Assembly (NCBI GenBank): GCA_046758505.1
Contig: JBHIAH010000048.1
Location: 1-19,118, forward strand
Reading direction: 5' to 3'
Length of the DNA: 19,118 nt
Source of the DNA: Candidatus Methylomirabilales bacterium
GTDB taxonomy: Bacteria; Methylomirabilota; Methylomirabilia; Methylomirabilales; CSP1-5
The notes below the pieces were generated by a model. It did no database searches. It worked only from the letters and a program-made list of their open reading frames with translations, and had not been told where the DNA came from. Positions 1 through 17,283 of this stretch are shown here, piece by piece. Within the stretch, counting starts at the first letter, position 1. Every line of letters starts with the position of its first letter. A program made the translations under genes and the position numbers.

Positions 1-140
1 ATTGGCCTGCCTGGCTACAAACGGCGCCTGCGAGCGGAATGGGGTCAGGTCTTGAATCTTGACATTTCCCCCTTCCCACGTTCACCCGGACGCGACCCAA
101 GGCCTTTGGGGCGTGCCGCTCGTCCCCCGGCCGGGCTCCC

Positions 141-181
141 AAAACACAAAGCACCGGGGGGCCTCTGTGGTCCGCCCGGTG
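141..181 (-). terminator. Putative intrinsic terminator (minus strand)
   Basis: Stem CACCGGG/CCCGGTG (152-158/175-181) with an inner imperfect stem, followed on the minus strand by CTTTGTGTTTT. Confidence 0.45.
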
Positions 182-364
182 TCTCCATGCTTCCGGGTCG
201 TATCGACTCCATTTTCAACCCTACCGATAAGCACTCAACTCATCGCCATAACGTCGTAAATATGCGATGGTTTTTTGCCCCCCTTGTCAAGAGCTCGGCC
301 GGTAGCGTGAGGCGTCTCAGCCTCTCGCATTTGTGCGCCCGTAGGGTACTGATCTTGACGTGTC

Positions 365-829
365 CTACTCCTCCTCGACCGTCCCACTGTACTCGATGGC
401 GATGCCCCGGCGCACGCTCTGGGACGCGGGGCACCCCTTCTCGTGGACCTCGATGGCCCGCTCGGCCTCCCCGCGTTTGCCTGCCGGGACCTTCACATGA
501 TAGCGCACCGCGATCTTTGTGATCAACAGGTGCCCGTCGACCTTTTCAATAACGCCGTCAACCTCCGACCAGAGCTTGTCCGGCTGGGTCGGAATTTTCC
601 GTGCCGCTAGCGCCACGGCTAGCGTGCCCGTCATTCAGCCCGCGACGGCGGCAATCACATGGTCGAGCGTCGTCGGCAATTCCTCTTGCGGCTCGACCCC
701 GTAGAATTTCTTGACGCCGCCGTGGACCCCGTAGCGGACCGGCTCCGGAAATGACTCAATGTAGGCGCGCCGGACCGGACCCTTGTCTTTGACGATCTTG
801 ACCTTGGAGGTGTGGATCAGCTCTCCCAT
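365..829 (-). CDS. OsmC/Ohr-family peroxiredoxin-like protein, probable selenoprotein (in-frame TGA at 637-635 = Sec65), 154 aa
   Basis: ORFs 635..829 and 365..634 are in the same frame and separated only by one TGA (...LDHVIAAVAG-TGA-MTGTL...). GGAGG RBS lies upstream of ATG 829. TGA falls at the first conserved Cys of OsmC-like proteins, and the C-terminal CPAS matches the second Cys motif (CPVS-like). A hairpin follows the TGA. Confidence 0.85.
603..627 (-). promoter_or_regulatory. Candidate bacterial SECIS element
   Basis: mRNA after UGA reads AUGACGGGCA-CGCUAGC-CGUGGC-GCUAGCG-GC. This is a perfect 7-bp stem (605-611/618-624), extendable by 2 bp across a bulged A. The apical loop starts 17 nt after UGA and has G at its second position. 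Confidence 0.7.
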
Positions 830-923
830 CGTCTCCTCCCGTCGTGAGGGGTGTTGACCGCTGGCCTGGATGGCACGTATCCGTCACCGGTCGGGGCCTT
901 CGGCAGTCGGTGGTGGCCCTCAT

Positions 924-952
924 ACGCTACCAGGGGTGGCTGCGCGGGTCAA
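924..952 (-). promoter_or_regulatory. Putative sigma70 promoter for the OsmC-like gene
   Basis: Minus strand TTGACC (952-947), 17-nt spacer, TAGCGT (929-924), about 95 nt upstream of the start codon. Confidence 0.45.
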
Positions 953-1066
953 GGAAAACGTGGTTTGAATTTTTCGCTTTACACCACGACTGCCGATATG
1001 TTACCTACACGGAAAGGGAATATCCTGCCACTGGCCGTCCAGGCGACGCGTCGTGAAGGAGAACCC

Positions 1067-3154
1067 ATGAAGGGACACGAAGTTGCGCAGATCCGAAATG
1101 TGGGAATCGTCGCCCACGGGCAGGAGGGAAAGACCTCCTTGACGGAAGCGATCCTCTTTGACACCGGAGTGTTGACCCGCCTCGGGCGCGTCGAGGAAGG
1201 GAACACCACCACCGACTTTGACGAGGACGAGATCAAGCGGGGGATCACCGTCAGTGCGGCCGTCGCCTACACCGAGTGGAAAGGGGTAAAGTTCAATCTG
1301 ATCGATACGCCCGGCTTCTCCAACTTTCTGACCGATACGCGGATCTGCCTGCGGGTCGCCGATGTCGCTCTGATTCTGGTGGGCGCGGTAGACGGGGTCA
1401 AGGTCCAGACGGAAAAGGTCTGGGGATATGCGGAGGGGTACGGCCTGCCCGTGGTCTTCTTTGTCAACAAGATGGATCGGGAGCGGGCAGACCTCTTTCG
1501 GACCCTCGAGGATCTCCGCAAGGGCCTGAGTCCTGCGGCCGTCCCCTTGCAGATCCCCATCGGGGCCGAGGGGAGCTTCCGGGGCGTCGTGGACCTCTTG
1601 GGGATGAAGGCGTACACGGTTCAGGGGGGCGGGTCGGCAACGGTCAAGGAGGAGGAGGTCCCGTCTGAGCTTGCGGAGCAGGCGGCTGCGCTCCACAACG
1701 CCCTCGTCGAGGCCGTTGCGGAGTCGGACGACGCCCTGCTGGAACAGTATCTGGAGAGTGGGACCCTGACCCCCGAGGACCTCCACGCCGGACTGCGCCG
1801 TGCCATTGCCGCCCGGTGTCTCTTCCCGGTCCTCTGCGGCTCGGCAACCAAGAACATCGGCGTGCAGCCCCTCCTCGATGCTCTCATCCAGTGCTGTCCG
1901 TCCCCCCTGGATCGGCCGCCGGTGGAGGGGATAGAGAAGAAGTCGGGAGAGCGGGTCTCCAGGGCGACGCGGCTGGAGGAGCCGCTGACGGCCCTGGTCT
2001 TCAAGACCATCAGCGACCCCTACGCCGGCAAGATCAGCGTCTTCCGGGTGTATGCCGGGCAAGTGAAGGCCGATAGCAGTATCTATAACGCGACCAAGGG
2101 GGTCAAGGAGCGGATCGGACAGCTTTCTCTTCTGCGGGGAAAGCAGCAGACCCCGGTGGGGGCGGTGGGTCCGGGAGACATCGGGGCGGTGGTGAAACTG
2201 AAGGAGACCGGCACGGGCGATACGCTGTGTGACGAAAAATCCGCCATCCTACTCGAGCCGCTTCCGCTGTCGACCCCCTCGATCTCTTACGCGGTCGCCC
2301 CCAAGTCCAAGGGGGATGAGGAGAAGCTGTCCGGCGCCTTGAGCCGCCTCATGGACGAGGATCCGAGCCTCAAACTGGGCCGGGACCAGCAGACCAAGGA
2401 AACGATCGTCTCGGGCATGGGGAAGGTCCACCTGGAGGTGTCGCTGGACCGGCTCAAGCGAAAATTCGGGGTGGACGTCTTCATGAAGACCCCGCGTGTT
2501 CCCTACAAGGAGACCATCCGGGGGGTCGCCTCCGTTCAGGGGAAGTATAAGAAACAGACGGGAGGCCGGGGACAGTACGGCGATTGTTGGATCAAGGTGG
2601 AACCCTTGCCGCGGGGGGCCGGCTACGAGTTTGTCAATCAGATTGTCGGGGGGGTGATCCCGCGGCAATACATTCCCGCGGTGGAGAAGGGGATACTGGA
2701 GGCCATGGAGGGAGGCGTCTTGTCCGGCTATCCCGTCACCGACGTGAGGGTGTCCCTCTACGACGGCTCGTACCATACGGTGGACTCTTCGGAGATGGCC
2801 TTTAAGATCGCCGGCTCCCTCGCCTTGAAGAAGGCGGTGCAGCAGGCCACCCCGGTCCTCCTCGAGCCGATCATGACGGTGGAGGTGAGCGCGCCTGATG
2901 ATGCCATCGGGGACGTGATCGGCGATCTCAACTCACGGCGCGGGCGGGTGATGGGGGTCGAAGGCAAGAGTAAAAGCCAGGCCATCAAGGCGGTGGTCCC
3001 GCTGGCGGAGATGCTGGAGTACGCCCCTCACCTGCGCTCGCTGACGGGGGATCGCGGGGACTACACCATGGAGTTTTCTCATTTCGAAGAAGTGCCGGCT
3101 CACATCCAGGAGAAACTGGTGGCCGAGGCCAAAAAGGAAGAGCAGGGGGACTAG
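1067..3154 (+). CDS. fusA: Elongation factor G-like protein (EF-G2-type paralogue), 695 aa
   Basis: Motifs IRNVGIVAHGQEGKTS, RGITV, DTPGFSNF, NKMD, GMGKVHLE, KKQTGGRGQYG and GSYHTVDSSEMAF. Start moved from 851 to ATG 1067, which follows an AAGGAG RBS. The gene is not in an rpsL-rpsG-fusA-tuf context. Confidence 0.92.
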   Translation: MKGHEVAQIRNVGIVAHGQEGKTSLTEAILFDTGVLTRLGRVEEGNTTTDFDEDEIKRGITVSAAVAYTEWKGVKFNLIDTPGFSNFLTDTRICLRVADVALILVGAVDGVKVQTEKVWGYAEGYGLPVVFFVNKMDRERADLFRTLEDLRKGLSPAAVPLQIPIGAEGSFRGVVDLLGMKAYTVQGGGSATVKEEEVPSELAEQAAALHNALVEAVAESDDALLEQYLESGTLTPEDLHAGLRRAIAARCLFPVLCGSATKNIGVQPLLDALIQCCPSPLDRPPVEGIEKKSGERVSRATRLEEPLTALVFKTISDPYAGKISVFRVYAGQVKADSSIYNATKGVKERIGQLSLLRGKQQTPVGAVGPGDIGAVVKLKETGTGDTLCDEKSAILLEPLPLSTPSISYAVAPKSKGDEEKLSGALSRLMDEDPSLKLGRDQQTKETIVSGMGKVHLEVSLDRLKRKFGVDVFMKTPRVPYKETIRGVASVQGKYKKQTGGRGQYGDCWIKVEPLPRGAGYEFVNQIVGGVIPRQYIPAVEKGILEAMEGGVLSGYPVTDVRVSLYDGSYHTVDSSEMAFKIAGSLALKKAVQQATPVLLEPIMTVEVSAPDDAIGDVIGDLNSRRGRVMGVEGKSKSQAIKAVVPLAEMLEYAPHLRSLTGDRGDYTMEFSHFEEVPAHIQEKLVAEAKKEEQGD

Positions 3155-3270
3155 TGCCGCTCCAACGTATTGCCCCGACCACCGTCAGGAAGTCAGCAAG
3201 CCTCCTGGTGTTGGCATCGGACACCTCTACCGGGTGAGGAAAGGTAGAACGGCAGTAGGGAAAATTCTCC

Positions 3271-3299
3271 TTGCCTCTTGGTCGCCGCTATGCTATAAA
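3271..3299 (+). promoter_or_regulatory. Putative sigma70 promoter of the rimP-nusA-infB operon
   Basis: TTGCCT (3271-3276), 17-nt spacer, TATAAA (3294-3299) with an extended -10 TG at 3291-3292. Confidence 0.6.
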
Positions 3300-3307
3300 C
3301 AAAGAGT

Positions 3308-3338
3308 AAAGTGGGCCCGGGCCCACTTTCTTCTTTTC
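3308..3338 (+). promoter_or_regulatory. rimP-leader hairpin (terminator/attenuator-like)
   Basis: AAAGTGGGC-CCGG-GCCCACTTT is a perfect 9-bp stem followed by CTTCTTTTC. It lies between the promoter and the rimP start and resembles the conserved GTGGG...CCCAC hairpin seen upstream of rimP. Confidence 0.65.
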
Positions 3339-3351
3339 TGGGACGGAAAGA

Positions 3352-3819
3352 ATGGCCCCCGTCGACCCGGTGATTGAGCGGATCCGGGCCCTCGCCCTTC
3401 CCGTGGTCGAGGGCCAGGGAATGGAGCTTGTGGATGTGGTATTTCGTCGGGAGGCGCGGGGCTGGATGCTTCGCCTGTATCTGGACAAGCCGGGAGGGGT
3501 CACGGTCGAGGACTGCCGAGAGGTGAGCGAGCAGCTGTCTGATCTCTTGGACGTGGAAGAGCTCATCGAACATCCGTACACCCTGGAGGTTTCCTCACCC
3601 GGATTGGACCGCGTGCTCAGGACCCCAGGGGATTTCCTGCGGTTTGCGGGGCGGCGCGCCCGGATTCAAACGACGGCTCCGATCGGGGGGCAGCGGCGGT
3701 TTCATGGCCGCGTGGAGGGATACCGGGAAGGGATGGTGATCTTGCGGCAGGAGCAGGGCCCGACGCTGCTGATCCCCCTCGAGGCGATCGCGAAGGCCCG
3801 GCTTGAAGTCGAACTGTGA
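3352..3819 (+). CDS. rimP: Ribosome maturation factor RimP
   Basis: LRLYLDKPGGVTVEDC, YTLEVSSPGLDR motifs; position upstream of nusA. Confidence 0.96.
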   Translation: MAPVDPVIERIRALALPVVEGQGMELVDVVFRREARGWMLRLYLDKPGGVTVEDCREVSEQLSDLLDVEELIEHPYTLEVSSPGLDRVLRTPGDFLRFAGRRARIQTTAPIGGQRRFHGRVEGYREGMVILRQEQGPTLLIPLEAIAKARLEVEL

Positions 3820-3821
3820 AT

Positions 3822-3911
3822 GGTTCATGGTGCAGGGTTCACGGTTCAGGGATAAGAGGACTTTTTTCTCGTCAATATCGGCCCTGAACTATGAACCATG
3901 AACTATGAACT
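3822..3911. repeat. Inverted pair of heptamer tandem arrays (GGTTCAN x4 ... NTGAACY x4)
   Basis: ggttcat ggtgcag ggttcac ggttcag at 3822-3849, and ctgaact atgaacc atgaact atgaact at 3884-3911. Confidence 0.85.
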
Positions 3912-3933
3912 CGACGGAGGGAGATAGATCACG

Positions 3934-5268
3934 GTGGATCTGATCCAGGTCATTGAGCAAATCGGACGAGAAAAAGGCATCGAGCGGGACGTGCTGATCG
4001 ATGCCGTGGGTGCGGCGATCCTATCGGCCTCTCGGAAGACCTTGGGGACCCTGTCGGATCTCCGGGTCGACTTCGATCAGGGCGCCGGGCAGTTTGTCCT
4101 GTACACCGTGAAAAAGGTGGTCGAGGAGGTGACCAATCCCCGCACCGAGATTACGCTCGAGGAGGCCCGCCGCCACCAGCCGGGGCTGGAACTGGGGGAC
4201 GAGTTCCGGGTCGAGGTTCAACCGCGCGGGTTTGGACGCATTGCCGCCCAGACGGCCAAGCAGGTCATCATCCAACGGGTTCGGGAGGCGGAACGGGACA
4301 GTATCTTCCAAAGCTTTAAGAACCGCGAGGGGGAATTGATCACCGGGGTCGTGCAGCGCGTGGTGAAGGACAATGTCATCGTCAATGTGGGGAAGGCCGA
4401 AGCGATCCTGCCTCCGCGGGAGCAGCTCCATCGGGAGGACTACCGCCCCGGCGACCGGATTCGGTCCTATATCGTAGAGGTTAAGAAGGGGACCCGGGGA
4501 GCCACCGTCCTCGTGTCGCGGAGTCATCCGGGGATGCTGTTGAGGCTCTTTGAGGTCGAAGTGCCCGAGATCGAGGAGGGGATCGTCGAGATCAAAGGCG
4601 TGGCCCGGGAGCCGGGGGAACGGGCCAAGATTGCCGTTGTGTCCCGTGACAGCAATGTCGACCCGGTGGGGGCGTGCGTTGGATACCGGGGCTCACGGGT
4701 TCAGGTGGTTGTCCGGGAGTTGGGAGGCGAAAAGATTGATATCATCCCGTGGCGGGAGAATCCGGCCGACTTTGTGCGCAGTGCCCTGGCCCCTGCCGAG
4801 GTGCAGTCTGTGATGGTGGACGAGGAGAGTCATACGCTCCACGTGGTCGTGGCGGACGAGCAACTCTCGCTTGCCATCGGCAGGCGAGGGCAGAACGCTC
4901 GCCTGGCGGCCAAGCTGGTTGGGTGGAAGGTGGACATCAAGAGTCCTGCCGAGCTGGCCCGGCAGGCGGAGGAGAAGGCGGCGCGGGCCCGAGTGACCCT
5001 TGAGGAGCTGGCGGGGGTCTCTGGGATCGGCCCCAAGATCGCCGGGCGCTTGGTTGAAGCGGGCTTCGATACCCTGGAGCGGCTGAGGCGAGCGTCCGCG
5101 GAGGATCTGAGGGCCGTCAAGGGTATCGGGCCGAAGACCGCCGCGACGATCGTCACCACCATTCAGGACATCGCGGCCCGTCCCGTGGCTGACGTGGAGC
5201 CTGCGGCCACCCCATCCGAGGAGGCACCCCCTGAGGAAGCGGCGGTCGAGCCGGAGATCGCATCATGA
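3934..5268 (+). CDS. nusA: Transcription termination/antitermination factor NusA with C-terminal HhH repeats (start may be ATC at 3928)
   Basis: FGRIAAQTAKQVIIQ, S1 and KH domains (DPVGACVG, SLAIGRRGQNARLA), two HhH motifs (GVSGIGPK, AVKGIGPK). Confidence 0.97.
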   Translation: MDLIQVIEQIGREKGIERDVLIDAVGAAILSASRKTLGTLSDLRVDFDQGAGQFVLYTVKKVVEEVTNPRTEITLEEARRHQPGLELGDEFRVEVQPRGFGRIAAQTAKQVIIQRVREAERDSIFQSFKNREGELITGVVQRVVKDNVIVNVGKAEAILPPREQLHREDYRPGDRIRSYIVEVKKGTRGATVLVSRSHPGMLLRLFEVEVPEIEEGIVEIKGVAREPGERAKIAVVSRDSNVDPVGACVGYRGSRVQVVVRELGGEKIDIIPWRENPADFVRSALAPAEVQSVMVDEESHTLHVVVADEQLSLAIGRRGQNARLAAKLVGWKVDIKSPAELARQAEEKAARARVTLEELAGVSGIGPKIAGRLVEAGFDTLERLRRASAEDLRAVKGIGPKTAATIVTTIQDIAARPVADVEPAATPSEEAPPEEAAVEPEIAS

Positions 5269-5921
5269 TGGAAGGCAGAATGTCGAGCGGAGGAGCAAAA
5301 TCGCCGGAGCGAACCTGCGTGGGGTGTGGTCAGAGGCGAGGCCAGAGGGAGCTTCTTCGGTTCAGTGGCGGCCCGGCCGGACTCCAAGTCCATCTCGAAG
5401 GGGGGGCGGGGCGCGGGGCCTATTGCTGTCCCGACGCCGGCTGTCTGGAGCGGACCGTACAGCGAAAGGCCTTGCAGAGAGCCCTCGGAGCGGACCTTGA
5501 TCCGCTGAGTGTCCAGGGGCTCCGGGCGGGGATCCACCGGGCAGTGCTTCGAAAGGTCCACAGGCTCCTGGGCTTGGCTCGAAGGGCCAAAAGAATCGTG
5601 GCCGGGCCCAGGGCGGTGGCGGCCGCCCTTGCGACGGGTCGGGTTCGACTGCTTCTCTTCCATCACGATGTCTTCCCGCAGGGCGATAAACGGTTGGCGG
5701 AGGAGGCGGAGCGGCGAGGGGTGCCCGTGGTACGGGTGTTCTCCCGGGACGATCTGGAAGGGGCGATCGGGGCTCCTTCGCCAGGGGCGGTGGCACTCTT
5801 AGACGGCAGCTTTGCCGAAGGGATCCTCCGGACCTCGCGGTACTGGATTCCCTTCATGAGCGAGGAGAGACCGCTCGGCACGGGAGAGGAACGGCAGAGG
5901 GGAGGTGGGTGGCGTGGGTAA
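5265..5921 (+). CDS. YlxR (DUF448/RnpM)-L7Ae (YlxQ-like) fusion RNA-binding protein
   Basis: N-terminal PERTCVGC...GRGAYCC...CL is YlxR-like and C-terminal [14 protein letters not shown]...LEGAIG is L7Ae-like. It lies between nusA and infB. Start is 5265 (ATGA overlap with nusA) or 5280. Confidence 0.85.
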
Positions 5922-8355
5922 CATCCGGGTGTACGAAGTGGCCAAGGAGCTCGGCCTGTCCAGCAAGGAGGCCGTCGAGCGCCTGGCCAAGGCTGGGTTC
6001 TCCGTGAAAAGCTCGAGCAGCTCGGTGGACGAGGCGAAAGCGCGGGCTGCCTTGTCCAAGGCGGAGGTCTCTCCAAAGAAGGTGTCCAAGAAGGCGACCA
6101 AGGGGACGTCTGCCGTGAAGGCCAAAGCACCCAAGCGGGCGAAAGAGGGCCTCGAAACGAAGCCGGGCCATGGGGCGGAGGCAGGGGCGAGACCGGCCCC
6201 TGCTCCGCCCAAGCCAGCCCCCGGGGTGAGGCCGCGACCGAAGGCCCCCCGCGCCGAAGAGGTGCCTCCCAGAAAAGAGATCACCTCTCCACTCCGGCCC
6301 CCGGAGAAAGAACCGGCGGCAGTCAAGGGGAAGCCTGCCCCACCGCCTTCCAAGGCAGCGGCCAAGCCTGCAGCGCCACCGGCTGCGAAACCTCCCCACG
6401 TTGAGGCCCGTCGTCCAGGGGCTCCCGTGGTGGAGAAGCCGAGTCGCGTGCCGGACCGGCCCGACCGCGTGGGACCAACGCCGTCCGTGCCCCCCCCCAA
6501 GGCCCCGGCACCCCCCAAGGCCCCGCCCCCACCACCCGAGCGCAGGGAACCGGTGGCGCCTCCGGTTCCGAAAGTGGTCAAGGTAGCCGAGACGATTACC
6601 GTGAAGGAGCTCAGCGAGAAATTGGCGACGAGCTCGAGTGAGATCATCAAGAAATTGATGAAGATGGGGATCATGGCCACCGTCAACCAGAGCCTGAACC
6701 CCGAAGTGGTCAAGCAACTCGCAGGCAAGCTCGGCTTCGATGTCGAGGTGGCCCCGGTTGAGGAAGTGGAGGAGGTCGTTGCCGAAGTCGAGGATCCGAC
6801 CCAGCTTCGCTTCAGGCCACCCGTGGTCACGGTGATGGGGCATGTGGACCACGGGAAGACCTCGCTCCTGGACGCGATCCGACATACCGATGTCATCGCC
6901 GAGGAGGTGGGGGGCATCACCCAGCATATCGGTGCCTGTGAGGTGGAACTCCCTCCGGATCCCGGGACGAAGTTTCCCGGGGGCCGCGTGGTCTTCCTGG
7001 ATACGCCTGGGCATGAAGCCTTCACCGCGATGCGGGCGCGGGGGGCCCACGTGACCGATGTTGTCGTGCTCGTGGTGGCCGCGGATGACGGGGTCATGCC
7101 CCAGACGGTTGAGGCCATCAACCACGCGAAGGAGGCGAATGTTCCGATGCTGGTGGCGATCAACAAGATCGATAAGCCGGGCGCGGATCCCAACCGGGTG
7201 AAACAGCAGCTGACCGAATACGGGCTGATCCCGGAGGACTGGGGAGGGCAGACCATCTTTGTGGAGGTTTCGGCCAAGAAGCGGGTCGGCATCGAGCATC
7301 TCCTGGAGATGCTCCTCCTCCAGGCGGAGATTATGGAGCTGAAGGCCAATCCCTTCAGACCGGCCAAGGGGGTGGCGATCGAAGCAAAGCTCGACCGGGG
7401 CCGGGGACCAGTCGCCACCGTCCTTGTGCAACAGGGGACGCTCAGGGGTGGGGATGTCTTCGTGTTGGGGAATACATACGGACGGGTCCGCGCCTTGGTC
7501 AATGACAAGGGGCGGAAGGTGCAGGAAGCCGGGCCGTCCACCCCCGTGGAGGTCCTGGGCCTTTCCGGTGTCCCGGCGGCGGGGGACACCTTGGCGGTGG
7601 TGGGTGATGAGCGAAAGGCCCGGCAGGTCGCCTTGATCAGACGGCAGCAGCAGCGGGACGACGTCTTTGCCGCTCAGCGCCGACTGACGCTCGAGGACCT
7701 CCACCAGCGAATCAAGGAGGGAGAGGTGAAGGAGCTCCGCCTCATCCTCAAGGGGGACGTCCAGGGCTCGATCGAGCCGCTCAGGGAATCACTGGAGCGG
7801 CTGAGCGCCCCGGAGATTCAGTTGAAGGTAATCCATGCGGGCGTGGGAGGGATCAGTGAGTCGGATGTGATGCTTGCCTCCGCCTCGAATGCGATCGTCC
7901 TGGGGTTTAATGTCCGCCCCGATCCGAAAGCCCAGCGGGTGGCGGAGCAGGTGGGAGTGGAGGTCCGGGTCTACACGGTGATCTATGATGCGGTCGCCGA
8001 GATCAGGGAGGCGATGGAAGGAATGCTCGAGCTGCAGTATGTTGAGCGGACCATGGGCCGGGCCGAGGTCCGGGCGACCTTCGGTGTCCCCCGGCTCGGA
8101 ACGGTGGCCGGCTGCTACGTCAGCGAGGGGAAGGTGCTCCGGGATGCCGCCATGCGTCTCATCCGCGATAGCCGGGTGGTCCATCAGGGCAAGATTGCCT
8201 CGCTCCGTCGCTTCAAGGACGATGTCCGCGAGGTGCAGAGTGGTTATGAGTGCGGCATCGGTCTCTTGAACTTCAGCGACATCAAGGTGGGGGACATCAT
8301 CGAGGTGTACGAGCTCACGCCGGTGGCCCCCACCCTGCAACCGACGCATGGGTGA
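5914..8355 (+). CDS. infB: Translation initiation factor IF-2
   Basis: [12 protein letters not shown]-terminal domain, Pro/Ala/Lys-rich linker, [38 protein letters not shown]. Start set at GTG 5914, 8 nt after GGAGG (5901-5905). Confidence 0.97.
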
Positions 8356-8407
8356 TCGGAGGCCGCGCGGTCGAGGTCGGGGAGCGGGTCGCGGTGAACC
8401 GGAGACG

Positions 8408-8713
8408 ATGATGGTCGTGGGAACGTGTCGGGTGGAGCTCAGAATTCCTCACACCTCTTCCCTGAAGGGAAAGAGGCAGGTCCTCCGCAGCATCAAGGAC
8501 CGCGTGCGGAACCGGTTCAACGTCTCCATCGCCGAGGTGGGGTACCTCGAGGAGTGGCAGCGGGCGACGCTGGCCGTGGCCTGCGTGAGCAACGAAGCCA
8601 AGGTGGTGGATGAGATGCTCAGCAAGGTGGTCGACTGCATTGAAGGGCACGGGCTGGCGCTCCTGGTGGACTATGCCATCGATGTGGTTGTTCACGGCAA
8701 CGGGTTCGCGTGA
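8408..8713 (+). CDS. DUF503 (YlxP) family protein
   Basis: SLKGKRQVLRSIKDRVRNRFNVSIAEV motif; typical position between infB and rbfA. GGAG at 8401 precedes ATG 8408/8411. Confidence 0.9.
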   Translation: MMVVGTCRVELRIPHTSSLKGKRQVLRSIKDRVRNRFNVSIAEVGYLEEWQRATLAVACVSNEAKVVDEMLSKVVDCIEGHGLALLVDYAIDVVVHGNGFA

Positions 8714-8742
8714 ATGGCGGGATCTCGCCGAGGTGTGTCGGG

Positions 8743-9099
8743 ATGTCTCGGGCAGAGCGGGTCGGGGATCTCTTGCAAGAGGAGCTCAGTGAGCTCCTCT
8801 TGCGCGACATCAAGGATCCCCGGATCGGTTTTGTGACCATTACCGGGATTCGGGTCAGCGCCGATCTCCGCCACGCCCGGGTCTACATCGTCACCCACGA
8901 AGCCGGAGAGGGGCAGCAGCGTACCCTGGAGGGGTTGCAGAGTGCCCGCGGCTACCTCCGGGGCGTCCTCGGACGGCGCCTTCACCTCCGCTACGTCCCC
9001 GATCTGAACTTCTGCATCGACGAGACGCTGGAGCAGAGCTTCCGAGTCCAGGAGATCCTCAAGTCCCTGGGGACGGGGGGCGGGACAGATGAGGAGTGA
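8743..9099 (+). CDS. rbfA: Ribosome-binding factor A
   Basis: MSRAERVGDLLQEEL, IKDPRIGFVTIT, DLRHARVY, LRYVPDLNF. GAGGTG RBS precedes ATG 8743. Confidence 0.95.
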   Translation: MSRAERVGDLLQEELSELLLRDIKDPRIGFVTITGIRVSADLRHARVYIVTHEAGEGQQRTLEGLQSARGYLRGVLGRRLHLRYVPDLNFCIDETLEQSFRVQEILKSLGTGGGTDEE

Positions 9100-10087
9100 T
9101 CTCGCGGAGATTGTGGCGACCCTAAAGGGGGCGAGGTCAGTGGCCATCCTTTCGCATATCCGGCCGGAGGGGGATACCCTGGGCTCCGCGCTGGGGTGTT
9201 ATCTTACCCTGCGGGGCATGGGCAAGGAGGTGGCCACCTTTAATCCAGACCCGGTCCCCAAGAACCTCCGCGCCTTGCCGGGTGCGGCCGAGGTGATCCG
9301 TGCGGACCGGCTGCCCCGGCGCTTTGACTGCTATCTCGTTGTGGACGCCACGGATCCCGGGCGCGTGGGTGGGTTGCTCGGCGGGGCGCCGCCGGGAGGG
9401 CCGGTGATCAATATCGACCACCACATCAGCAACACCCACTTTGGAACGTATAACTGGGTGGATCCGAAGGCCGCCGCCGCCGGCGAGATGATTTATTACC
9501 TGATCGCGGAGCTCGGAGTCCCCCTCTCGCGGGAGGTGGCCACCAACCTCTATGTCGCGATCTTGACCGACACCGGCTCCTTTCACTATGCCAACACCAC
9601 CCCGAGGGCCCTTCGGGTGGCGGCGGCGCTGGTCGAGGCCGGCGTGGTTCCTCAGCAGGTGGCGGAGCTCCTGTTCGATCAGCGAGGCGTCGAGGAGCTG
9701 CGTCTCTTGGGAACCCTGCTCACCAAAATTCAGCTCTCTGCTGATGGCGCGGTGGCGTGGATCGAGGTGACGCGGGAGATGCTGGAACAGGACGGGGATG
9801 CCCGGGATGCCCTCGAAGATCTGATCAACTACCCCCGGTCGGTCAAGGGGGTGGAGGTCGCTCTCCTCTTGAGGGAGGAGGGGGGGGAGGGCGTGCGGGT
9901 CAGTCTCCGGTCCAGGGGAAAGGTGGACGTGGCGGCCGTGGCAAAAACGTTTCAGGGCGGGGGACATAAGAACGCTGCCGGGTGTACGGTCGTCGGTTCT
10001 CTTCCCGAAGCCCGGGAACGCATCATTGCGGAGGTTCGTCGCGTATTCGCCGGGGGCGGAGACGAGTGTTCTGATGGGAAGGGCTGA
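9089..10087 (+). CDS. nrnA: DHH/DHHA1 phosphoesterase (NrnA-like oligoribonuclease/pAp phosphatase)
   Basis: HIRPEGD, VVD, NIDHH, ILTDTGSF, SLRS and GGGHKNAAG motifs. Confidence 0.9.
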   Translation: MRSDLAEIVATLKGARSVAILSHIRPEGDTLGSALGCYLTLRGMGKEVATFNPDPVPKNLRALPGAAEVIRADRLPRRFDCYLVVDATDPGRVGGLLGGAPPGGPVINIDHHISNTHFGTYNWVDPKAAAAGEMIYYLIAELGVPLSREVATNLYVAILTDTGSFHYANTTPRALRVAAALVEAGVVPQQVAELLFDQRGVEELRLLGTLLTKIQLSADGAVAWIEVTREMLEQDGDARDALEDLINYPRSVKGVEVALLLREEGGEGVRVSLRSRGKVDVAAVAKTFQGGGHKNAAGCTVVGSLPEARERIIAEVRRVFAGGGDECSDGKG

Positions 10088-11039
10088 AGCCCGAGAGATC
10101 TCCGGGGTTCTCAACGTCGATAAGTCCACGGGGATGACATCCCATGATGTGGTGGATGTCATCCGGCGGTTGTACCATGTCCGAAAGGTCGGGCATACTG
10201 GGACCCTGGATCCCCGGGGGACCGGGGTGCTCCCCATCTGTGTGGGCCGCGCCACAAAGATTGCCCAGTTTTTGACGACCGCCGACAAAGAGTACGAGAT
10301 GGTCGTGCGGCTCGGGGTGAGCACCGATACCCAGGATGCGGATGGCAAGGTCATCGACGAGGCAGAGGTTCGGGTGACCCGGGAGGGGGTGGAAGCGGCC
10401 CTCCGGAATTTCATGGGGGAGGTGCAGCAAGTCCCCCCCCTCTTCTCGGCGAAACGGGTGAAGGGAGAACGCCTGTACAAGATGGCCCGCCGCGGAGAGG
10501 ACGTCCCCCGGGATCCGGTCACAGTCCGGATCTACGGCATCCGCCTGATCTCCTTCGGTCCCCCGCTTGTCGGGCTCTGGGTGCACTGCAGCAAGGGGAC
10601 CTATGCGCGGACGCTCGCCGACGATCTGGGAAAGATGCTCGGCTGTGGGGCGCATCTCCACAGCTTGGTCCGCGTCCGCGCGGGCCGCTTTGAGCTGAAG
10701 GATGCCCTGAGCCTGAATGAACTCACGGCCATGGTGGCGGACGGAAGAGGGGAGGAACCACTCATTCCGGTGGAGGAGGCGCTGGATCACCTCCCCGCAG
10801 CGCGAGTCCTCCCTGAAGCCTCCCGGCTCATCCTGCATGGCTCGCCGGTCACGGCTGCGCAAGTGGTGAGTGTGCCCCCGGAGGTGGGGAAGGGGGCGGT
10901 GGTCCGGGTCCTGGGGTTCAGGCGTCACCTCTTGTCTCTGGCGACTGCCACGGTCGACGCCGCGGATTTCACCCAGGTGGACCCCCGCCGGGTGGTCCTC
11001 ACGCCGGTTCGCGTGTTCAGGTCTGCCCAGAGCCAGTAA
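10074..11039 (+). CDS. truB: tRNA pseudouridine(55) synthase TruB
   Basis: GVLNVDKSTGMTSHDVV, KVGHTGTLDP, QVPPLFSAK, CSKGTYARTL. ATG 10074 chosen as start. Confidence 0.95.
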   Translation: MGRAEAREISGVLNVDKSTGMTSHDVVDVIRRLYHVRKVGHTGTLDPRGTGVLPICVGRATKIAQFLTTADKEYEMVVRLGVSTDTQDADGKVIDEAEVRVTREGVEAALRNFMGEVQQVPPLFSAKRVKGERLYKMARRGEDVPRDPVTVRIYGIRLISFGPPLVGLWVHCSKGTYARTLADDLGKMLGCGAHLHSLVRVRAGRFELKDALSLNELTAMVADGRGEEPLIPVEEALDHLPAARVLPEASRLILHGSPVTAAQVVSVPPEVGKGAVVRVLGFRRHLLSLATATVDAADFTQVDPRRVVLTPVRVFRSAQSQ

Positions 11040-11043
11040 AGGT

Positions 11044-12048
11044 ATGCAGATCATTCGGGACATCGCACACCTGCAAGGGAAATCCTTTCCGCACGTGGCC
11101 GCGGCTGTCGGGACGTTTGATGGGGTCCATGCCGGTCACCAGCGGATCATCCGCACGGTCGTGGAGCGCGCCAGACAGACCGGGGGGACGGGGGCCGCCC
11201 TGACCTTCATCGACCATCCGTTGCGTATCCTGCAGCCGAATCGGGCTCCGAGCCTCATTACCCCCTCCCCCCTCAAGGAACGGCTCCTGAATGGCATGGG
11301 GGTGGACCTGCTGATCGCCGTCCCCTTTACGGCGAGCCTTGCCGGGATGGAGGCGGAAGCCTTCGTGGAGGAGATCCTGTGGAAGGCGCTTCGGGTGGAG
11401 TTTCTCTGTATCGGGTTCGATTTTCACTTCGGCAAGGGTCGGCGGGGCACGTCAGATCTCCTCAAACGGATGGGGGAGGCTCTCGGATTCGCCGTGGAGG
11501 TTGTCCCGCCGATCGCGGTGGAGGGGACCGTCGTCAAGTCGGGCCTGATCCGCGATCTGTTGCATCGGGGGAAGGTGGGCGAGGCCGCGCGGTATCTCAC
11601 CCGCCCGTACGCGATCGCTGGCGAGATCGTCCCCGGCGCGGGTCGAGGGAGGGACTTGGGTTTTTCGACCGCGAATGTGGTCCCCCCTCAGGACTTTCTC
11701 ATTCCCGATGGGGTGTACGCGGGCCGGGCGTATGCCGGTGAGCGAGGGTACGACGCCGCCATTAATGTCGGCGTGGCACCCACGTTCGGGAGGCGGGGCC
11801 GCCGCGTGGAAGTCCACCTCCTCGATGTTGGGGAGGATGGGGTACCCGGGTATGGGCAGGCGGTGTTGGTCACCTTCTGGGAGCGGATCCGGGAGGAGAT
11901 CCGATTTGCCTCTCCGGAAGAGTTGAAGGCCCAGGTGGCGCGGGACATCCGGCGGGCCAGGGAGGTCCTCCGGCAATCCTCGTCGCCGGCTCCGGCAGAT
12001 TGGCCTTTACTCGGGATCGGGTCCTGTGTTAGACTAACGCACGATTGA
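11044..12048 (+). CDS. ribF: Bifunctional riboflavin kinase/FAD synthetase
   Basis: [49 protein letters not shown] 11044 lies just after the truB stop. Confidence 0.95.
12006..12035 (+). promoter_or_regulatory. Putative internal promoter for rpsO inside the ribF 3' end
   Basis: TTTACT (12006-12011), 18-nt spacer, TAGACT (12030-12035) with an extended -10 TG at 12027-12028. Confidence 0.4.
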
Positions 12049-12062
12049 GAAAGGGTGGAGGC

Positions 12063-12332
12063 GTGGCGAAGGATCTTGCCCAAAAACGGGAGCGGATTAA
12101 AGAATTTAACCTGCACGGGCAAGATACCGGCTCGCCAGAGGTCCAGATTGCCCTTCTGAGCACGCGGATTGAGTCTCTCAGCCAGCACCTCACCCTCCAC
12201 AAGAAGGATCACCATTCCCGGATCGGTCTTCTTCGGATGGTCAGCCGCCGACGGAAGCTTCTCAACTATTTGAAGCGTAAGGATGTGGAGCGATACCGGA
12301 AGCTCATCCAGCGACTGGGGATTCGTCGCTAG
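12063..12332 (+). CDS. rpsO: 30S ribosomal protein S15, 89 aa
   Basis: [38 protein letters not shown] 12063 gives the canonical 89-aa length. Confidence 0.97.
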
Positions 12333-12460
12333 GGGGGTCTATAGTCTCCCATCTCAACGGTTCCCCACGGTGTCGTCGCTCTGCCCGCGGCAGATGGCAA
12401 CAACGGGGTCATCTCTCGCGGGCTTTTTTCGTATGAGCTGACAAGGGGGCAGATAAAGCG

Positions 12461-14647
12461 ATGGTTGAACGCCTAGAGATCGAAATTGGAGGGCGACCGT
12501 TTTCCCTGGAGGCGGGCCGGGTGGCCCGCCAGGCAGATGGAGCGGTCTGGGTCCGGTGCGGGGATACGGTGGTCTTGGTGACCGCGGTGGCCGCGAAGCA
12601 CCCGCGGGAAGGGATCGATTTTTTCCCCCTGACGGTGGACTATCAGGAGCGCGCCTATGCTGCTGGCATGATTCCCGGGGGCTTTTTCAAGCGGGAAGGC
12701 CGGCCGCGGGACCAGGAGATCGTGACCGCGCGTCTCATTGACCGGCCCATCCGTCCCCTCTTTCCGAAGGGCTTCCGTCGGGATGTGCAGATCATCGCCA
12801 CGGTTCTCTCCGCCGACCATGAGAACGATCCTGATGTGCTCGCCCTCGTGGGGGCCTCGGCAGCCCTGACCATCTCATCCATCCCCTTCCTGGGACCGAT
12901 CGGCGCCGTTCGGGTCGGCCGGGTGGGGGGGCGGCTGGTTGCAAATCCTACCTACGAGCAGATGGAGGAGTCGGACCTGGACCTGGTGATCGCCGGGACC
13001 AAGGCGGCGGCGATGATGGTGGAGGCGCGGGCCAAACAGGTCCCCGAGGCGGTGATCCTGGAGGCCATTGCCTTTGGCAACGCCGTCATTGCCGACATTG
13101 TGCAGATGCAAGAGACCCTGGCCGCTTTGGTGGGTCGGTCCAAGATCCCCTTCACCTCACCCACGGTGGACCCCGCCCTGCTCGAGCGGGTCTCGGGGCT
13201 CGCCCGCGGACCCATTCGGGGGCTCGCGGCCCTGCATGAAAAGGAGGGCCAGCGGGCCCGGCGCGAAGAGATCGCAGATGAAACCCTGCAGGCCTTCGCC
13301 GGGGAACCGGTCGAGATTCAGGCGCAGGCGAAGGAGCTGCTGGAGAAGATCGAGAAAGAGGAGATGCGGCGCCTGATTCTGGAAGAGGGGCATCGGGCTG
13401 ACGGCCGGTCCCCAGAGGATGTCCGCCCAATCACCTGTGAGGTCGGGGTCCTCCCCCGGACCCACGGCTCTGCCCTCTTTACCCGGGGCGAGACCCAGGC
13501 CCTGGTGACCACCACGTTGGGGACGTCTGAGGATGTCCAACGCCTGGACAGCATCGAGGGAGAGGGGTTCAAACGTTTCACGCTGCACTATAACTTCCCC
13601 CCCTTCAGCGTGGGGGAGGTCCGGTTCCTCCGGGCCCCCGGCCGTCGGGAGATCGGTCACGGGACGTTAGCCGAAAGGGCCCTGCTCTCTGTCCTTCCGA
13701 GTCCTGACGAGTTCCCGTACACTATCCGGATCGTCTCCGAGATTCTCGAGAGTAACGGCTCGTCCTCCATGGCCTCAGTCTGCGGTGCGACGCTAGCCCT
13801 CATGGATGCCGGGGTGCCCATCAAGTCGGCCGTGGGGGGGGTGGCCATGGGGTTGGTGATGGAAGAGGGGAGGTCCGCGATCCTCACCGACATCATGGGC
13901 CTCGAGGACCACCTCGGCGATATGGACCTTAAGGTGGCCGGGACGCGGGAGGGCATTGGGGCGGTTCAGATGGATATGAAGGTCCAGGGGGTGACCGTGG
14001 CCCTGATGGCCGAGGCCTTGGAGCGGGCCCGGCAGGCGCGGCTGCAGGTCCTCGATGTGATGGAAAAAACGTTGGCCCAACCCCGTCCCAACATCTCTGT
14101 CTATGCCCCGCGCCTGCTCACGGTGAAGGTCCCCGTGGACAAAATCCGGGAGGTGATCGGCCCGGGCGGGAAGGTCATCCGGGGGATCATCGAGGAAACC
14201 GGCTGCAAGATCGACATTCGGGATGACGGGACGGTCGAAATCGCTTCGACGGACGAAGCGGCGGCGGAGAAGGCCGTGGCCATCATCAACCGGATCGTCG
14301 AGGTGCCGGAGGTGGGGAAGGTCTACACGGGGAAGGTGAAGCGGGTCGTCGAGTTTGGCGCCTTCGTGGAGATCCTCCCCGGGACCGACGGCCTCCTCCA
14401 CATCTCCCAGATCGCCGAGCATCGTATTCAGCGGGTGCAGGACGTGCTCTCCGAGGGAGATGAGGTGAGCGTCAAGGTGATCGAGATCGACCCGTCGGGG
14501 AAGATCCGCCTGAGTCGGAAGGAGGTCCTGATGGCTCAGGGGGGCGAGGCAGCGGGGGATCGGAAGGAAGGCGGGCCGCCCCGGCGCGCGGATGGGGGGG
14601 GCCGGGGGCAGCGGGATATGCCCCGGGAGCGAGAGAGGAAACGGTAG
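12461..14647 (+). CDS. pnp: Polyribonucleotide nucleotidyltransferase (PNPase)
   Basis: DFFPLTVDYQE, RLIDRPIRPLF, HGSALFTRGETQ, LESNGSSSMAS, EDHLGDMDLKVAG, followed by KH and S1 domains. Confidence 0.98.
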   Translation: MVERLEIEIGGRPFSLEAGRVARQADGAVWVRCGDTVVLVTAVAAKHPREGIDFFPLTVDYQERAYAAGMIPGGFFKREGRPRDQEIVTARLIDRPIRPLFPKGFRRDVQIIATVLSADHENDPDVLALVGASAALTISSIPFLGPIGAVRVGRVGGRLVANPTYEQMEESDLDLVIAGTKAAAMMVEARAKQVPEAVILEAIAFGNAVIADIVQMQETLAALVGRSKIPFTSPTVDPALLERVSGLARGPIRGLAALHEKEGQRARREEIADETLQAFAGEPVEIQAQAKELLEKIEKEEMRRLILEEGHRADGRSPEDVRPITCEVGVLPRTHGSALFTRGETQALVTTTLGTSEDVQRLDSIEGEGFKRFTLHYNFPPFSVGEVRFLRAPGRREIGHGTLAERALLSVLPSPDEFPYTIRIVSEILESNGSSSMASVCGATLALMDAGVPIKSAVGGVAMGLVMEEGRSAILTDIMGLEDHLGDMDLKVAGTREGIGAVQMDMKVQGVTVALMAEALERARQARLQVLDVMEKTLAQPRPNISVYAPRLLTVKVPVDKIREVIGPGGKVIRGIIEETGCKIDIRDDGTVEIASTDEAAAEKAVAIINRIVEVPEVGKVYTGKVKRVVEFGAFVEILPGTDGLLHISQIAEHRIQRVQDVLSEGDEVSVKVIEIDPSGKIRLSRKEVLMAQGGEAAGDRKEGGPPRRADGGGRGQRDMPRERERKR

Positions 14648-14649
14648 CG

Positions 14650-15906
14650 ATGCCTGCCCGTCCCTTTTACCGGAAAGAAGTCCTCGACAACGGCCTCGTC
14701 ATCCTGACCGAGAAGATGCCGGGCGTGCGGTCTGTTTCGATGGGCATCTGGGTCCAGGTGGGCTCGCGAGAGGAGGAGGGGAGTCAGGCGGGGATCTCGC
14801 ATTTCATCGAGCACATGGTCTTCAAGGGAACGGAGAAGCGGAGTGCGGAGGAGATTGCCGCGGCCGTCGATTCCGTGGGGGGAAGTTTGGACGCCTTCAC
14901 GAGTCGGGAGTACACCTGCTTCTCCGCCAAGGTCCTGGGAGAGCATCTGCCGCTGGCCGTGGATCTGCTGGCAGACCTCGTCCTCCACGCCCGCCTCGAC
15001 CCAGCGGACATCGAGAAGGAGCGGGAGGTGGTCCTCCAGGAGATCAAGATGGTGGAAGATGCTCCCGATGATCAGATCCATGACCTCTTCACCCAGACCA
15101 CGTGGGCGGACCATCCCCTGGGGCGCCCCATCCTGGGTTGGCGTGAGACCCTCCGCCGGATCGGACGAGACGAGATCCTGAAGTATATGGACCGCTACTA
15201 CCGGCCCGACCGGGCGATCATTGCGGCCGCGGGTGATCTGGACCATGATGCCCTGGTCGGTCTCCTGACGGCCGCCTTTGGGGGCTGGGGTGGGCGCGCA
15301 GGCCGGGGAACGACCTCCCCCCCCGTGCCGCATGTGACCGCCGTGAATGAAGATCGGGATCTCAGCCAGGTCCACCTGTGCCTGGGCATCGGTGGCCTTG
15401 CGTACGCCCACCGGGACCGCTATACCCTCTCCATCCTCAATACCATTCTGGGGGGTGGGATGAGCTCCCGCCTCTTCCAGGAGATCCGGGAGCGACGAGG
15501 ACTCGTCTACTCAATCTACTCCTATGCGGCCTCGTACCGCGACGGGGGGCTCCTCGTAGTCTATGCCGGAACCAGTAACGACCACTATCAGGAGGTGGTA
15601 GATCTCATTCAGGCCGCGTTTCGGGAGGTTCGGGATCGGCCTGTGGGTTCTGCGGAGTTTCGGCGTGCCAAGGAGCAGCTCAAGGGCAATCTCCTCCTCG
15701 GCCTCGAGAGCACCAGTAGCCGGATGACGCGGCTGGCCAAGATGTACATGTACTTCGACCGGTGCTTCGGATTGGAGGAGATCATCCAGGGCATCGAGGA
15801 GGTGACGCCGGAGCGCCTCCAGCAGCTCACCCGATCCCTCTTTGACGGCGGGGCGTGCACCTTGGCTTCCATCGGCCGCATTCCTCATCCCTCTCCATCG
15901 GCTTGA
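14650..15906 (+). CDS. M16 family (pitrilysin-like) zinc peptidase
   Basis: HFIEH (inverted HXXEH) motif, LGGGMSSRLFQEIRERRGLVY; typical position after pnp. Confidence 0.93.
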   Translation: MPARPFYRKEVLDNGLVILTEKMPGVRSVSMGIWVQVGSREEEGSQAGISHFIEHMVFKGTEKRSAEEIAAAVDSVGGSLDAFTSREYTCFSAKVLGEHLPLAVDLLADLVLHARLDPADIEKEREVVLQEIKMVEDAPDDQIHDLFTQTTWADHPLGRPILGWRETLRRIGRDEILKYMDRYYRPDRAIIAAAGDLDHDALVGLLTAAFGGWGGRAGRGTTSPPVPHVTAVNEDRDLSQVHLCLGIGGLAYAHRDRYTLSILNTILGGGMSSRLFQEIRERRGLVYSIYSYAASYRDGGLLVVYAGTSNDHYQEVVDLIQAAFREVRDRPVGSAEFRRAKEQLKGNLLLGLESTSSRMTRLAKMYMYFDRCFGLEEIIQGIEEVTPERLQQLTRSLFDGGACTLASIGRIPHPSPSA

Positions 15907-15984
15907 CGCCCCGAGGGGTCTTATTCGCACTCGCGCGGATCGCTTCTCTGGGACGATGCTGCCACGTGTGAAAGAGGCTGAGCG

Positions 15985-17277
15985 ATGATTCCCCGCTACA
16001 CCCTCCCCCGCATGGCTGCGATCTGGGAGCTCGAACACCGGTTTCAGGTGTGGCTTCGGATCGAGGTCCTGGCCTGTGAGGCCTGGGCGCAGCTCGGGAC
16101 GATTCCCCGCCGGGCCCTGCAGGCGATTCAGGAGAAAGCCGCCTTTGACGTGGGGCGCATCGAGGAGCTCGAGCGGACGGTCCGGCATGAGGTGGTGGCG
16201 TTTCTCACCGCGGTGGCCGAGCGGGTCGGCGAGCCCAGCCGCTACCTCCACCTCGGCCTGACCTCTTCCGATGTCATGGACACCGCCTTGGCGTTCCAGC
16301 TCCAGGAGGCGGCGGCACTCCTCTCGGAGGATCTCGACGCGCTCCTTGAGGTCCTCAAGACGCTGGCCAGGACCCACAGACAGACCGTGATGGTCGGGCG
16401 GACGCACGGCGTGCACGCCGAGCCGATCACCTTTGGGCTCAAGGTGGCCCGCTGGTACAGCGAAATGCTCCGAAACCGAGATCGACTTGCGCAGGCCACG
16501 GACGCGGTCGGCTATGGCAAGGTCTCGGGCGCGGTCGGGACCTATGCCCATCTCCCTCCCTCCATCGAGGCGTACGTCTGTGAGAGGTTGGGGTTGAAGC
16601 CTGAGCCGATTTCGAGCCAGATCATCCCCCGGGATCGGCATGCCCAGTTTCTCCTGACGCTCGCCACCGTCGGCGCCGGTGTGGAGAACATCGCCACCGA
16701 GATCCGCCATCTGCAGCGGACCGAGGTCTTCGAGGCCGCTGAACCCTTCACCGAAGGGCAGAAGGGTTCCTCCGCCATGCCCCACAAGAAGAATCCGGTG
16801 ATCTGCGAGCAGGTCTCGGGGCTCTGCCGGATCCTTCGGGCAAATGCCATCGCGGCCCTGGAGGATGTTCCGCTCTGGCATGAGCGGGACATCAGCCATT
16901 CCTCGGTGGAGCGCGTTATCCTGCCCGACTCCACCATCCTGCTCGATTACCTGCTCGCCAAGATGCGGGAGGTGTTGGAGGGACTCCAGGTCTACCCCCA
17001 GCATATGGAACAGAACATCCAGCGCACGCAGGGCCTCCTTTTCTCCCAGCGGGTCCTCCTGGCCTTGACCGAGAAGGGGGTGTCCCGGGACGTCGCGCAC
17101 CACCTGGTTCAGCGAAACGCCATGCGAGCATGGGAGGCCGGAGTGGATTTTCAGGCCCTGGTGCTGAAGGACCCGGAACTGTTGCAACACCTCGCGCCAG
17201 ACGAGGTGGCCGCCTGCTTCGATCTGAAGCCGTACCTGGAGCACGTGGACACCATCTTCGCCCGATTGGGGCTGTAG
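15985..17277 (+). CDS. purB: Adenylosuccinate lyase
   Basis: MIPRY, HLGLTSSD, GRTHGVHAEP, GSSAMPHKKNP, WHERDISHSSVER. Confidence 0.98.
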   Translation: MIPRYTLPRMAAIWELEHRFQVWLRIEVLACEAWAQLGTIPRRALQAIQEKAAFDVGRIEELERTVRHEVVAFLTAVAERVGEPSRYLHLGLTSSDVMDTALAFQLQEAAALLSEDLDALLEVLKTLARTHRQTVMVGRTHGVHAEPITFGLKVARWYSEMLRNRDRLAQATDAVGYGKVSGAVGTYAHLPPSIEAYVCERLGLKPEPISSQIIPRDRHAQFLLTLATVGAGVENIATEIRHLQRTEVFEAAEPFTEGQKGSSAMPHKKNPVICEQVSGLCRILRANAIAALEDVPLWHERDISHSSVERVILPDSTILLDYLLAKMREVLEGLQVYPQHMEQNIQRTQGLLFSQRVLLALTEKGVSRDVAHHLVQRNAMRAWEAGVDFQALVLKDPELLQHLAPDEVAACFDLKPYLEHVDTIFARLGL

Positions 17278-17283
17278 AGCGAC

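Follow-up and report, generated by a model that had tools for sequence, protein, structure and literature searches.

Near one end of the window, by which we mean the whole 19,118-nt stretch of DNA analysed, two short open reading frames (ORFs) abut in the same frame with a single TGA between them, which raises the question of whether they are two genes, one broken gene, or one gene whose TGA is read as an amino acid. An initial annotation had placed a hidden OsmC/Ohr-like selenoprotein at 365..829 without stating its strand. The gene is indeed present and lies on the minus strand, with an ATG at 829-827 and a TAG at 367-365; a plus-strand reading of 365..829 was rejected, as it has stops all through. 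The 64-aa ORF (829-635) and the 89-aa ORF (634-365) adjoin in one frame as had been described, with only the TGA at 637-635 between them, and the read-through protein is 154 aa long and reads AAVAG-U-MTGTL around residue 65. The two ORFs are almost certainly one gene, the product of which is likely an antioxidant enzyme of the OsmC type with selenocysteine (Sec), encoded by the UGA, in its reactive site. The features on which the reading frame rests are as follows.

365..829, minus strand: OsmC/Ohr-fold gene of 154 codons plus a TAG stop, with an internal TGA predicted to be read as Sec (PF02566 score, pLDDT and fold comparison).
835..839, minus strand: Shine-Dalgarno sequence GGAGG, 5 nt ahead of the start codon (from the sequence).
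635..637, minus strand: in-frame TGA, codon 65, predicted Sec at the first (peroxidatic) Cys position (77 TGA, 4 Cys and 0 TAA/TAG in 81 loci).

To judge how codon 65 behaves in relatives, we scanned GTDB species genomes, and compared the window's locus with the best 80 of the 517 relatives found. Column 65 of these 81 homologous loci holds TGA 77 times, TGC three times, TGT once, and never TAA or TAG, and the terminal stops of the same loci are mixed (35 TAG, 28 TGA and 18 TAA). Both halves of the protein are conserved, with mean identities of 74% and 66%. Among the source genome (G000) and 60 relatives, 40 of the 61 genomes have a match, at 49 places in all; one TGA is found in 43 of these, which are all the matches of at least 42% identity, and the remaining six are 27-32% matches without a TGA. 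All 30 loci that were cut out carry TGA at column 65; since this set and the 81-locus set overlap and are related, the counts overstate independence. The TGA form was found across Methylomirabilota, Acidobacteriota, Armatimonadota, Nitrospinota and Bacillota, and in the last of these (401 genomes, from the phylum of a Clostridia-labelled genome) it occurs in 5/5 loci, each time followed by a Leu codon.

Where the protein is full length in databases, the same column is mostly Cys: the best 120 database matches include 17 full-length homologues, of which 14 have Cys, 2 Trp and 1 Gly, and Cys is found in 54 of 64 more distant full-length relatives. The latter are the proteins of 140-205 aa among 150 listed of the 296 matches at 1e-10 in a profile search of 1.84 billion representatives, and they also supply the distant-relative counts given below. 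An in-frame UGA is therefore aligned with the Cys of homologues and kept in other organisms, with coding conserved on either side of it (77/81 loci), and it can be stated with near certainty that this UGA is decoded as selenocysteine, as predicted from conservation.

The initial annotation had named three results that would speak against Sec: a genome without Sec machinery, a residue other than Cys in the homologues and a TGA introduced by sequencing. None was borne out, given that the genome has the machinery (see below), that column 65 shows TGA or Cys, that the TGA is shared by 43 of 49 places, and that no letter other than the reference was seen at 635-637 in 4/4 DNA runs (contigs, possibly from the source samples and then not independent). 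The four runs in which the gene is best represented come from a single study of hydrothermal-vent metagenomes, and the relatives of the gene carry NC10/Methylomirabilota labels; no RNA run with the gene was present among the listed holders. A pseudogene, a sequencing error, or a TGA read as Trp or Gly by an alternative code is extremely improbable. For an alternative code one could point to the W, W and G at column 65 of three full-length database homologues, but these are the table 4 and table 25 readings of TGA, the W proteins fall into a cluster with others that stop precisely at column 65 (seen as proteins, not DNA), and TGA is the commonest stop of this genome (302 of 586 long ORFs). Decay or error would also have to have produced the same TGA across five phyla.

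A split gene, in which translation stops at the TGA and restarts at the adjacent ATG to give two polypeptides that assemble, deserves closer attention, as the TGA is directly followed by ATG here and in 54 of the 77 TGA loci altogether. The other 23 have a Leu codon (CTG, CTC, CTA or CTT) and so cannot restart, and Met is also found at position 66 in some Cys homologues. The ribosome-binding site had been claimed to stand ahead of the first ORF alone; this was confirmed in the 53 TGA-ATG loci having a usable start, where an SD-like word precedes codon 1 in 53/53 and codon 66 in 0/53. Moreover, the codon is never TAA or TAG, a break here would, by the structure model, sit within helix 54-76 and remove a catalytic residue, and the SECIS-like hairpin described below is under selection. 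We therefore consider a split gene very improbable, although some restart at Met66 may still occur under selenium shortage. The reading as one Sec-containing gene also explains its appearance in databases. Standard pipelines had been expected to break such a gene, and 103 of the best 120 database matches are C-terminal halves of 88-93 aa; in NCBI entries the two halves are named separately, as "hypothetical" and "OsmC family protein".

Insertion of Sec in bacteria calls for a hairpin (bSECIS) downstream of the UGA, and such a hairpin is predicted in the gene.

605..624, minus strand: predicted bacterial SECIS with a 7-bp stem, a 6-nt loop CGUGGC and an energy of -10.4 kcal/mol (hairpin rules of PMC13188914).

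According to those rules, as given in PMC13188914, the loop is 3-9 nt with a G among its first two letters, the spacing is 16-37 nt and the energy is at most -7.5 kcal/mol. The window's hairpin, whose loop starts 17 nt past the UGA, has all of these properties. In our own implementation of the rules, 75 of 77 TGA loci passed, compared with a single borderline case in the four Cys loci and 174 (4.35%) of 4000 TGAs picked at random from the genome; when the test was slid along the same genes, 0-27% passed, except at offsets covering the same hairpin. The stem contains two Leu codons, each of them the rare CTA, which makes up 1.3% of Leu codons genome-wide. Within a 35-locus clade, defined by the tree and not by the hairpin, CTA accounts for 48 of 70 stem Leu codons but for 4 of 214 in the rest of these genes, and the entropy of third positions is 0.51 bits at the stem versus 1.22 bits elsewhere. 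(An earlier grouping for synonymous sites by the hairpin itself was dropped as circular.) Across 20 aligned sequences 96.4% of cells in the stem pair, with wobble changes only and no two-sided compensatory change, and the folding z-scores are modest (-1.1 to -2.1). An Rfam scan of window positions 1-1100 matched nothing up to E 5.

The position of the hairpin differs within the family. The loop starts at +17/18 in this clade, at +25/26 in most others including Bacillota, and at +19/20 in a few; because the +25/26 register is commoner across the family, +17 would be the derived state. Seven loci (L062, L065, L066, L069, L071, L077 and L094) have the +17 hairpin together with a weak overlapping +26 one, about 10-37 nt after the TGA, and these are possible intermediates of a SECIS shift.

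The initial annotation had implied that selA, selB, selC and selD are carried by the organism. All four were found in the genome, each over its curated cut-off (selA 607.5 bits, selB 333.2, selD 406.8, and tRNA-Sec 80), and selD carries a TGA of its own. A crude scan of the genome gave 35 TGA-plus-hairpin candidates, of which about 14, on contigs C1, C6, C7, C10, C19, C24, C73, C93 and C114, have motifs that look selenoprotein-like (CxxU, UxxC or TxxU). With some 14 motif-bearing candidates, the genome looks Sec-rich. Among related genomes selA is present in 53 of 61, and in 25 of 25 good ones; being near universal within its own order, its co-occurrence with the gene there says little. Outside this set, selA is present in 34 of 36 additional genomes that carry the TGA, most of which belong to other phyla, and in 3/3 Bacillota holders; of the two genomes without a selA match, one has selB. 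By way of background, BSepDB counts 16,621 Sec-utilising species among 64,762, as stated in PMC13326102. Three incomplete metagenome-assembled genomes with the TGA gene gave negative results: selA and tRNA-Sec were not found in G014 and G055 (74% and 76% complete), and in G071 (1.9 Mb) selA was not found and no selB match was over cut-off.

To understand what the protein does, its family and fold were determined. The read-through protein scores 46.4 bits against PF02566 (cut-off 27.5), compared with 32.4 for the C-terminal half alone and nothing for the N-terminal half alone. A structure model with Cys substituted for Sec has a pLDDT of 93.9 and resembles OsmC/Ohr structures from end to end (Foldseek E 5.5e-9; VIA Z 14.9, with 139 residues aligned at rmsd 2.2). 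Pfam score, fold and two redox residues, U65 and C133, place it in the OsmC/Ohr superfamily. As had been expected, residue 65 aligns with the first catalytic Cys of E. coli OsmC, and the CPAS motif noticed near the C-terminus (residues 133-136) opens with the Cys that aligns with the second. The residues of the predicted active site are listed here.

431..433, minus strand: Cys133 (CPAS), predicted resolving cysteine (Cys in 81/81 loci; aligns with the second OsmC Cys).
722..724, minus strand: His36, candidate active-site residue that may replace the OsmC Arg (76/77 TGA loci, 4/4 Cys loci).
662..664, minus strand: Asp56, invariant, which may correspond to the OsmC/Ohr Glu with an offset of one residue (81/81 loci).

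In Ohr/OsmC enzymes the first Cys attacks the peroxide and then forms a disulfide with the second, which is reduced by lipoylated proteins; Arg and Glu assist, and both are missing in a poorly characterised third group (PMC5384416, PMC8945050). One family member without Arg/Glu was inactive in one study (PMC5384416). The canonical pair looks to be absent from our protein as well: no invariant Arg was found across loci at OsmC's Arg site, judged by sequence, and the Glu site (10 before the Cys) would be Leu55, or Asp56 if a one-residue gap is opened. His36 is kept in 45 of the 64 distant relatives and the Asp56 column holds 61 Asp and 3 Glu in the same proteins (both counted by eye), and Thr54 is conserved too. 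We tentatively propose that His36 and Asp56 might take over the roles that Arg and Glu play in canonical members.

Based on these data, the locus is very probably a single 154-codon gene with UGA as Sec; its product, predicted to be an enzyme with the OsmC/Ohr fold, would likely reduce hydroperoxides via Sec65 and Cys133. By established Sec biology, SelB with Sec-tRNA would bind the hairpin 17 nt downstream and insert Sec; by OsmC/Ohr chemistry, the protein would dimerise. The selenolate of Sec65 would then attack the peroxide and form a selenosulfide with Cys133, to be re-reduced by a dithiol, probably of a lipoylated protein. Lipoyl domains gave four matches in the genome but also matches in 14/14 controls, and are thus not discriminating. 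By analogy, a Sec/Cys redox cycle is highly probable, and peroxide is a reasonably likely substrate. The earlier view of the enzyme thus holds for the predicted Sec/Cys redox pair; the protein is not a canonical OsmC/Ohr, and given the apparent lack of the Arg/Glu pair its peroxidase activity is something we infer.

A true selenoprotein that is not a peroxidase, in other words a third-group OsmC-like protein using Sec65/Cys133 for other redox chemistry or for sulfur/selenium transfer, is unlikely but deserves to be taken seriously. The protein stays under the OsmC (30.4 vs 85.8) and Ohr (18.4 vs 88.85) cut-offs, its top VIA matches are uncharacterised or YhfA-like (2onf, 1ml8 and 2pn2, largely tied), the canonical Arg/Glu were not found, and the family has conserved GxHG and TLD motifs of its own. 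On the other hand, the solved structures closest to it in sequence belong to bona fide OsmC enzymes, both catalytic positions are retained, the invariant Asp56 can be aligned with the Glu, and a selenolate requires less activation than a thiolate. Third-group proteins themselves "remain to be investigated", in the words of PMC8945050. Hydroperoxide reduction by Sec65 and Cys133 is therefore kept as the likely function.

The surroundings of the gene point to no partner. The commonest neighbour cluster (630 crude ORFs at 80 loci) occurs in only 7 loci, hence there is no conserved operon, and no fusion was found at E <= 1e-10 among proteins of 344-2000 aa, which is weak evidence. From 851 to 17991 on the plus strand the window carries genes that we take, by eye, to be an EF-G paralogue, rimP, nusA, infB, rbfA, DHH, truB, ribF, rpsO, pnp, an M16 peptidase, purB and purC, the presumed EF-G paralogue being divergent from the Sec gene. 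No tRNA was detected in the window, and a promoter and terminator scan was uninformative, with one consensus-like site within the gene and four terminator-like sites on the plus strand. Two repeats were also observed. Positions 38-184 hold a dispersed repeat that probably resembles MITE or REP elements; at least 11 other contigs of the genome carry related copies, and the window's contig starts beside the repeat. Degenerate direct repeats fill 18067-18930 between a purC-like and a purS-like ORF, with three 194-nt copies, two of them 99% identical, at spacings of 242 and 321 nt.

Elsewhere in the genome, a second OsmC-family gene was observed (G000:C1:74704-75060, minus strand), with a TGA at the first Cys position between LGALGT and VGVTL and a passing hairpin of -10.0, so that both OsmC-family genes of the genome carry TGA. 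We assume this second gene to be the more YhfA-like one. Similar TGA genes occur at loci L139, L141, L143 and L144, and the weak score of the second gene against the Sec-containing OsmC family NF041052 makes it possibly a third Sec branch.

How the Sec form arose was addressed with trees. In a FastTree phylogeny, midpoint-rooted and with column 65 masked, the TGA loci form one group (support 0.86) amid Cys proteins, with several Cys rows nested within. In an IQ-TREE phylogeny, the four Cys loci form a group of their own (100/97), which sits with two TGA loci in a larger clade (100/100). Both results suggest that Sec was gained from a Cys ancestor, with reversions afterwards, bearing in mind that the trees are unrooted and that full-length database entries are biased to Cys. 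The gain probably had an origin separate from that of the catalogued family. Loss of the Sec machinery was discarded as the cause of the Cys forms, as three of four Cys holders keep selA.

Several further observations concern individual carriers. In G063, whose genome holds the Cys form, the selA match is in two pieces (G063:C32:9217-10588), possibly through frameshift or decay. Contig CAXMLS010000606.1 carries a Cys paralogue (L105) and a TGA paralogue (L108) about 6 kb apart, a natural Cys/Sec pair. In cultured Bacillaceae, 66-aa "hypothetical proteins" (WP_078549163.1, WP_102346004.1 and KAA0548429.1, seen as proteins only) are the family's first half and end at the TGA column; WP_078549163.1 is from Litchfieldia alkalitelluris and KAA0548429.1 from Bacillus sp. 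BGMRC 2118.

We give nearly even chances to a broader proposal, that this is an uncatalogued subfamily in which Sec arose separately in a His/Asp-type OsmC-like family lacking the Arg/Glu pair, reached five or more phyla, gave way to Cys again on several occasions, and had its SECIS moved by about 8 nt via double-hairpin intermediates. If true, the Cys/Sec paralogues and the Bacillaceae copies could be used directly to ask what the OsmC fold gains from Sec, and how coding-region SECIS elements evolve. The known picture of Sec decoding is unchanged by our results. They correct a systematic mis-annotation, with 517 places in GTDB species genomes encoding a relative, and would add a subfamily that is absent as a separate entry from the 119-entry catalogue and from NCBIfam 20.0; new here are the probable separate Cys-to-Sec origin with reversions, the shifted SECIS and the Bacillaceae first halves. 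The branch also has cultured hosts and naturally occurring Cys forms, with which a first biochemical test could be made.

Selenium versions of the OsmC fold are already known, and the widespread branch reported here is distinct from the catalogued one. Sec-containing OsmC-like proteins, mentioned in the initial annotation, were indeed described in 2005 (Zhang, Fomenko and Gladyshev; PMC1088965; PF02566, motif UxxT). The OsmC-like selenoprotein family appears in Table 1 of PMC13188914, and in the 2026 catalogue it is a single entry of 119, predicted and not verified, in agreement with PMC9312934. Its published representatives read GFULLT (supplements, PMC2398784, PMC12013277). We found no description of the present branch in the literature searched, outside which lay Haft and Tolstoy 2025 (PMC12013261), Deng et al. 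2026, the BSepDB contents and the Sargasso supplement, any of which may contain it.

Compared with OsmC (TIGR03562; E. coli 1qwi/1nye) and Ohr (TIGR03561), the protein shares the whole-length fold, at 12-25% identity, and two redox positions, which lie 68 residues apart here and about 60 apart in OsmC/Ohr (PMC5384416). It differs in having Sec in place of the peroxidatic Cys and in missing both family cut-offs; the conserved Arg was not found, and the Glu site holds Leu or, with a shift, Asp. With the YhfA/Ohr-like third group (1ml8, 2onf) it shares two redox positions and the apparent absence of the Arg/Glu pair (PMC8945050), a PTTLD...C segment that aligns ungapped with YhfA, and the top VIA rows; identity is only 12-16%, and Sec and the His/Asp motifs set it apart.

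The closest parallel is NF041052 (OsmC_like_Se), which likewise has an OsmC fold with Sec in the column of the first catalytic Cys, keeps the second Cys and has a downstream SECIS. The Sec of its member L145, which is over cut-off, aligns with U65, at 26% identity over 98 aa. However, our protein reaches 21 bits with this model, whose cut-off is 95, and over-cut-off NF041052 matches were found in 0/61 related genomes. Another member, L153, reads GFULLT like the published UxxT set, whereas our protein reads AGUMTG; in place of UxxT it has UMTG, with Gly at position 68 in 81/81 loci. Unlike the UxxT family, it carries GVHGG-KKFY and PTTLD motifs and nests among Cys proteins that belong to its own subfamily. 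Under the rule that the catalogue applies, the same domain with a different Sec motif would make it a further subfamily. As far as its sequence tells, the protein works like the known OsmC-like selenoprotein family, yet stands outside it.
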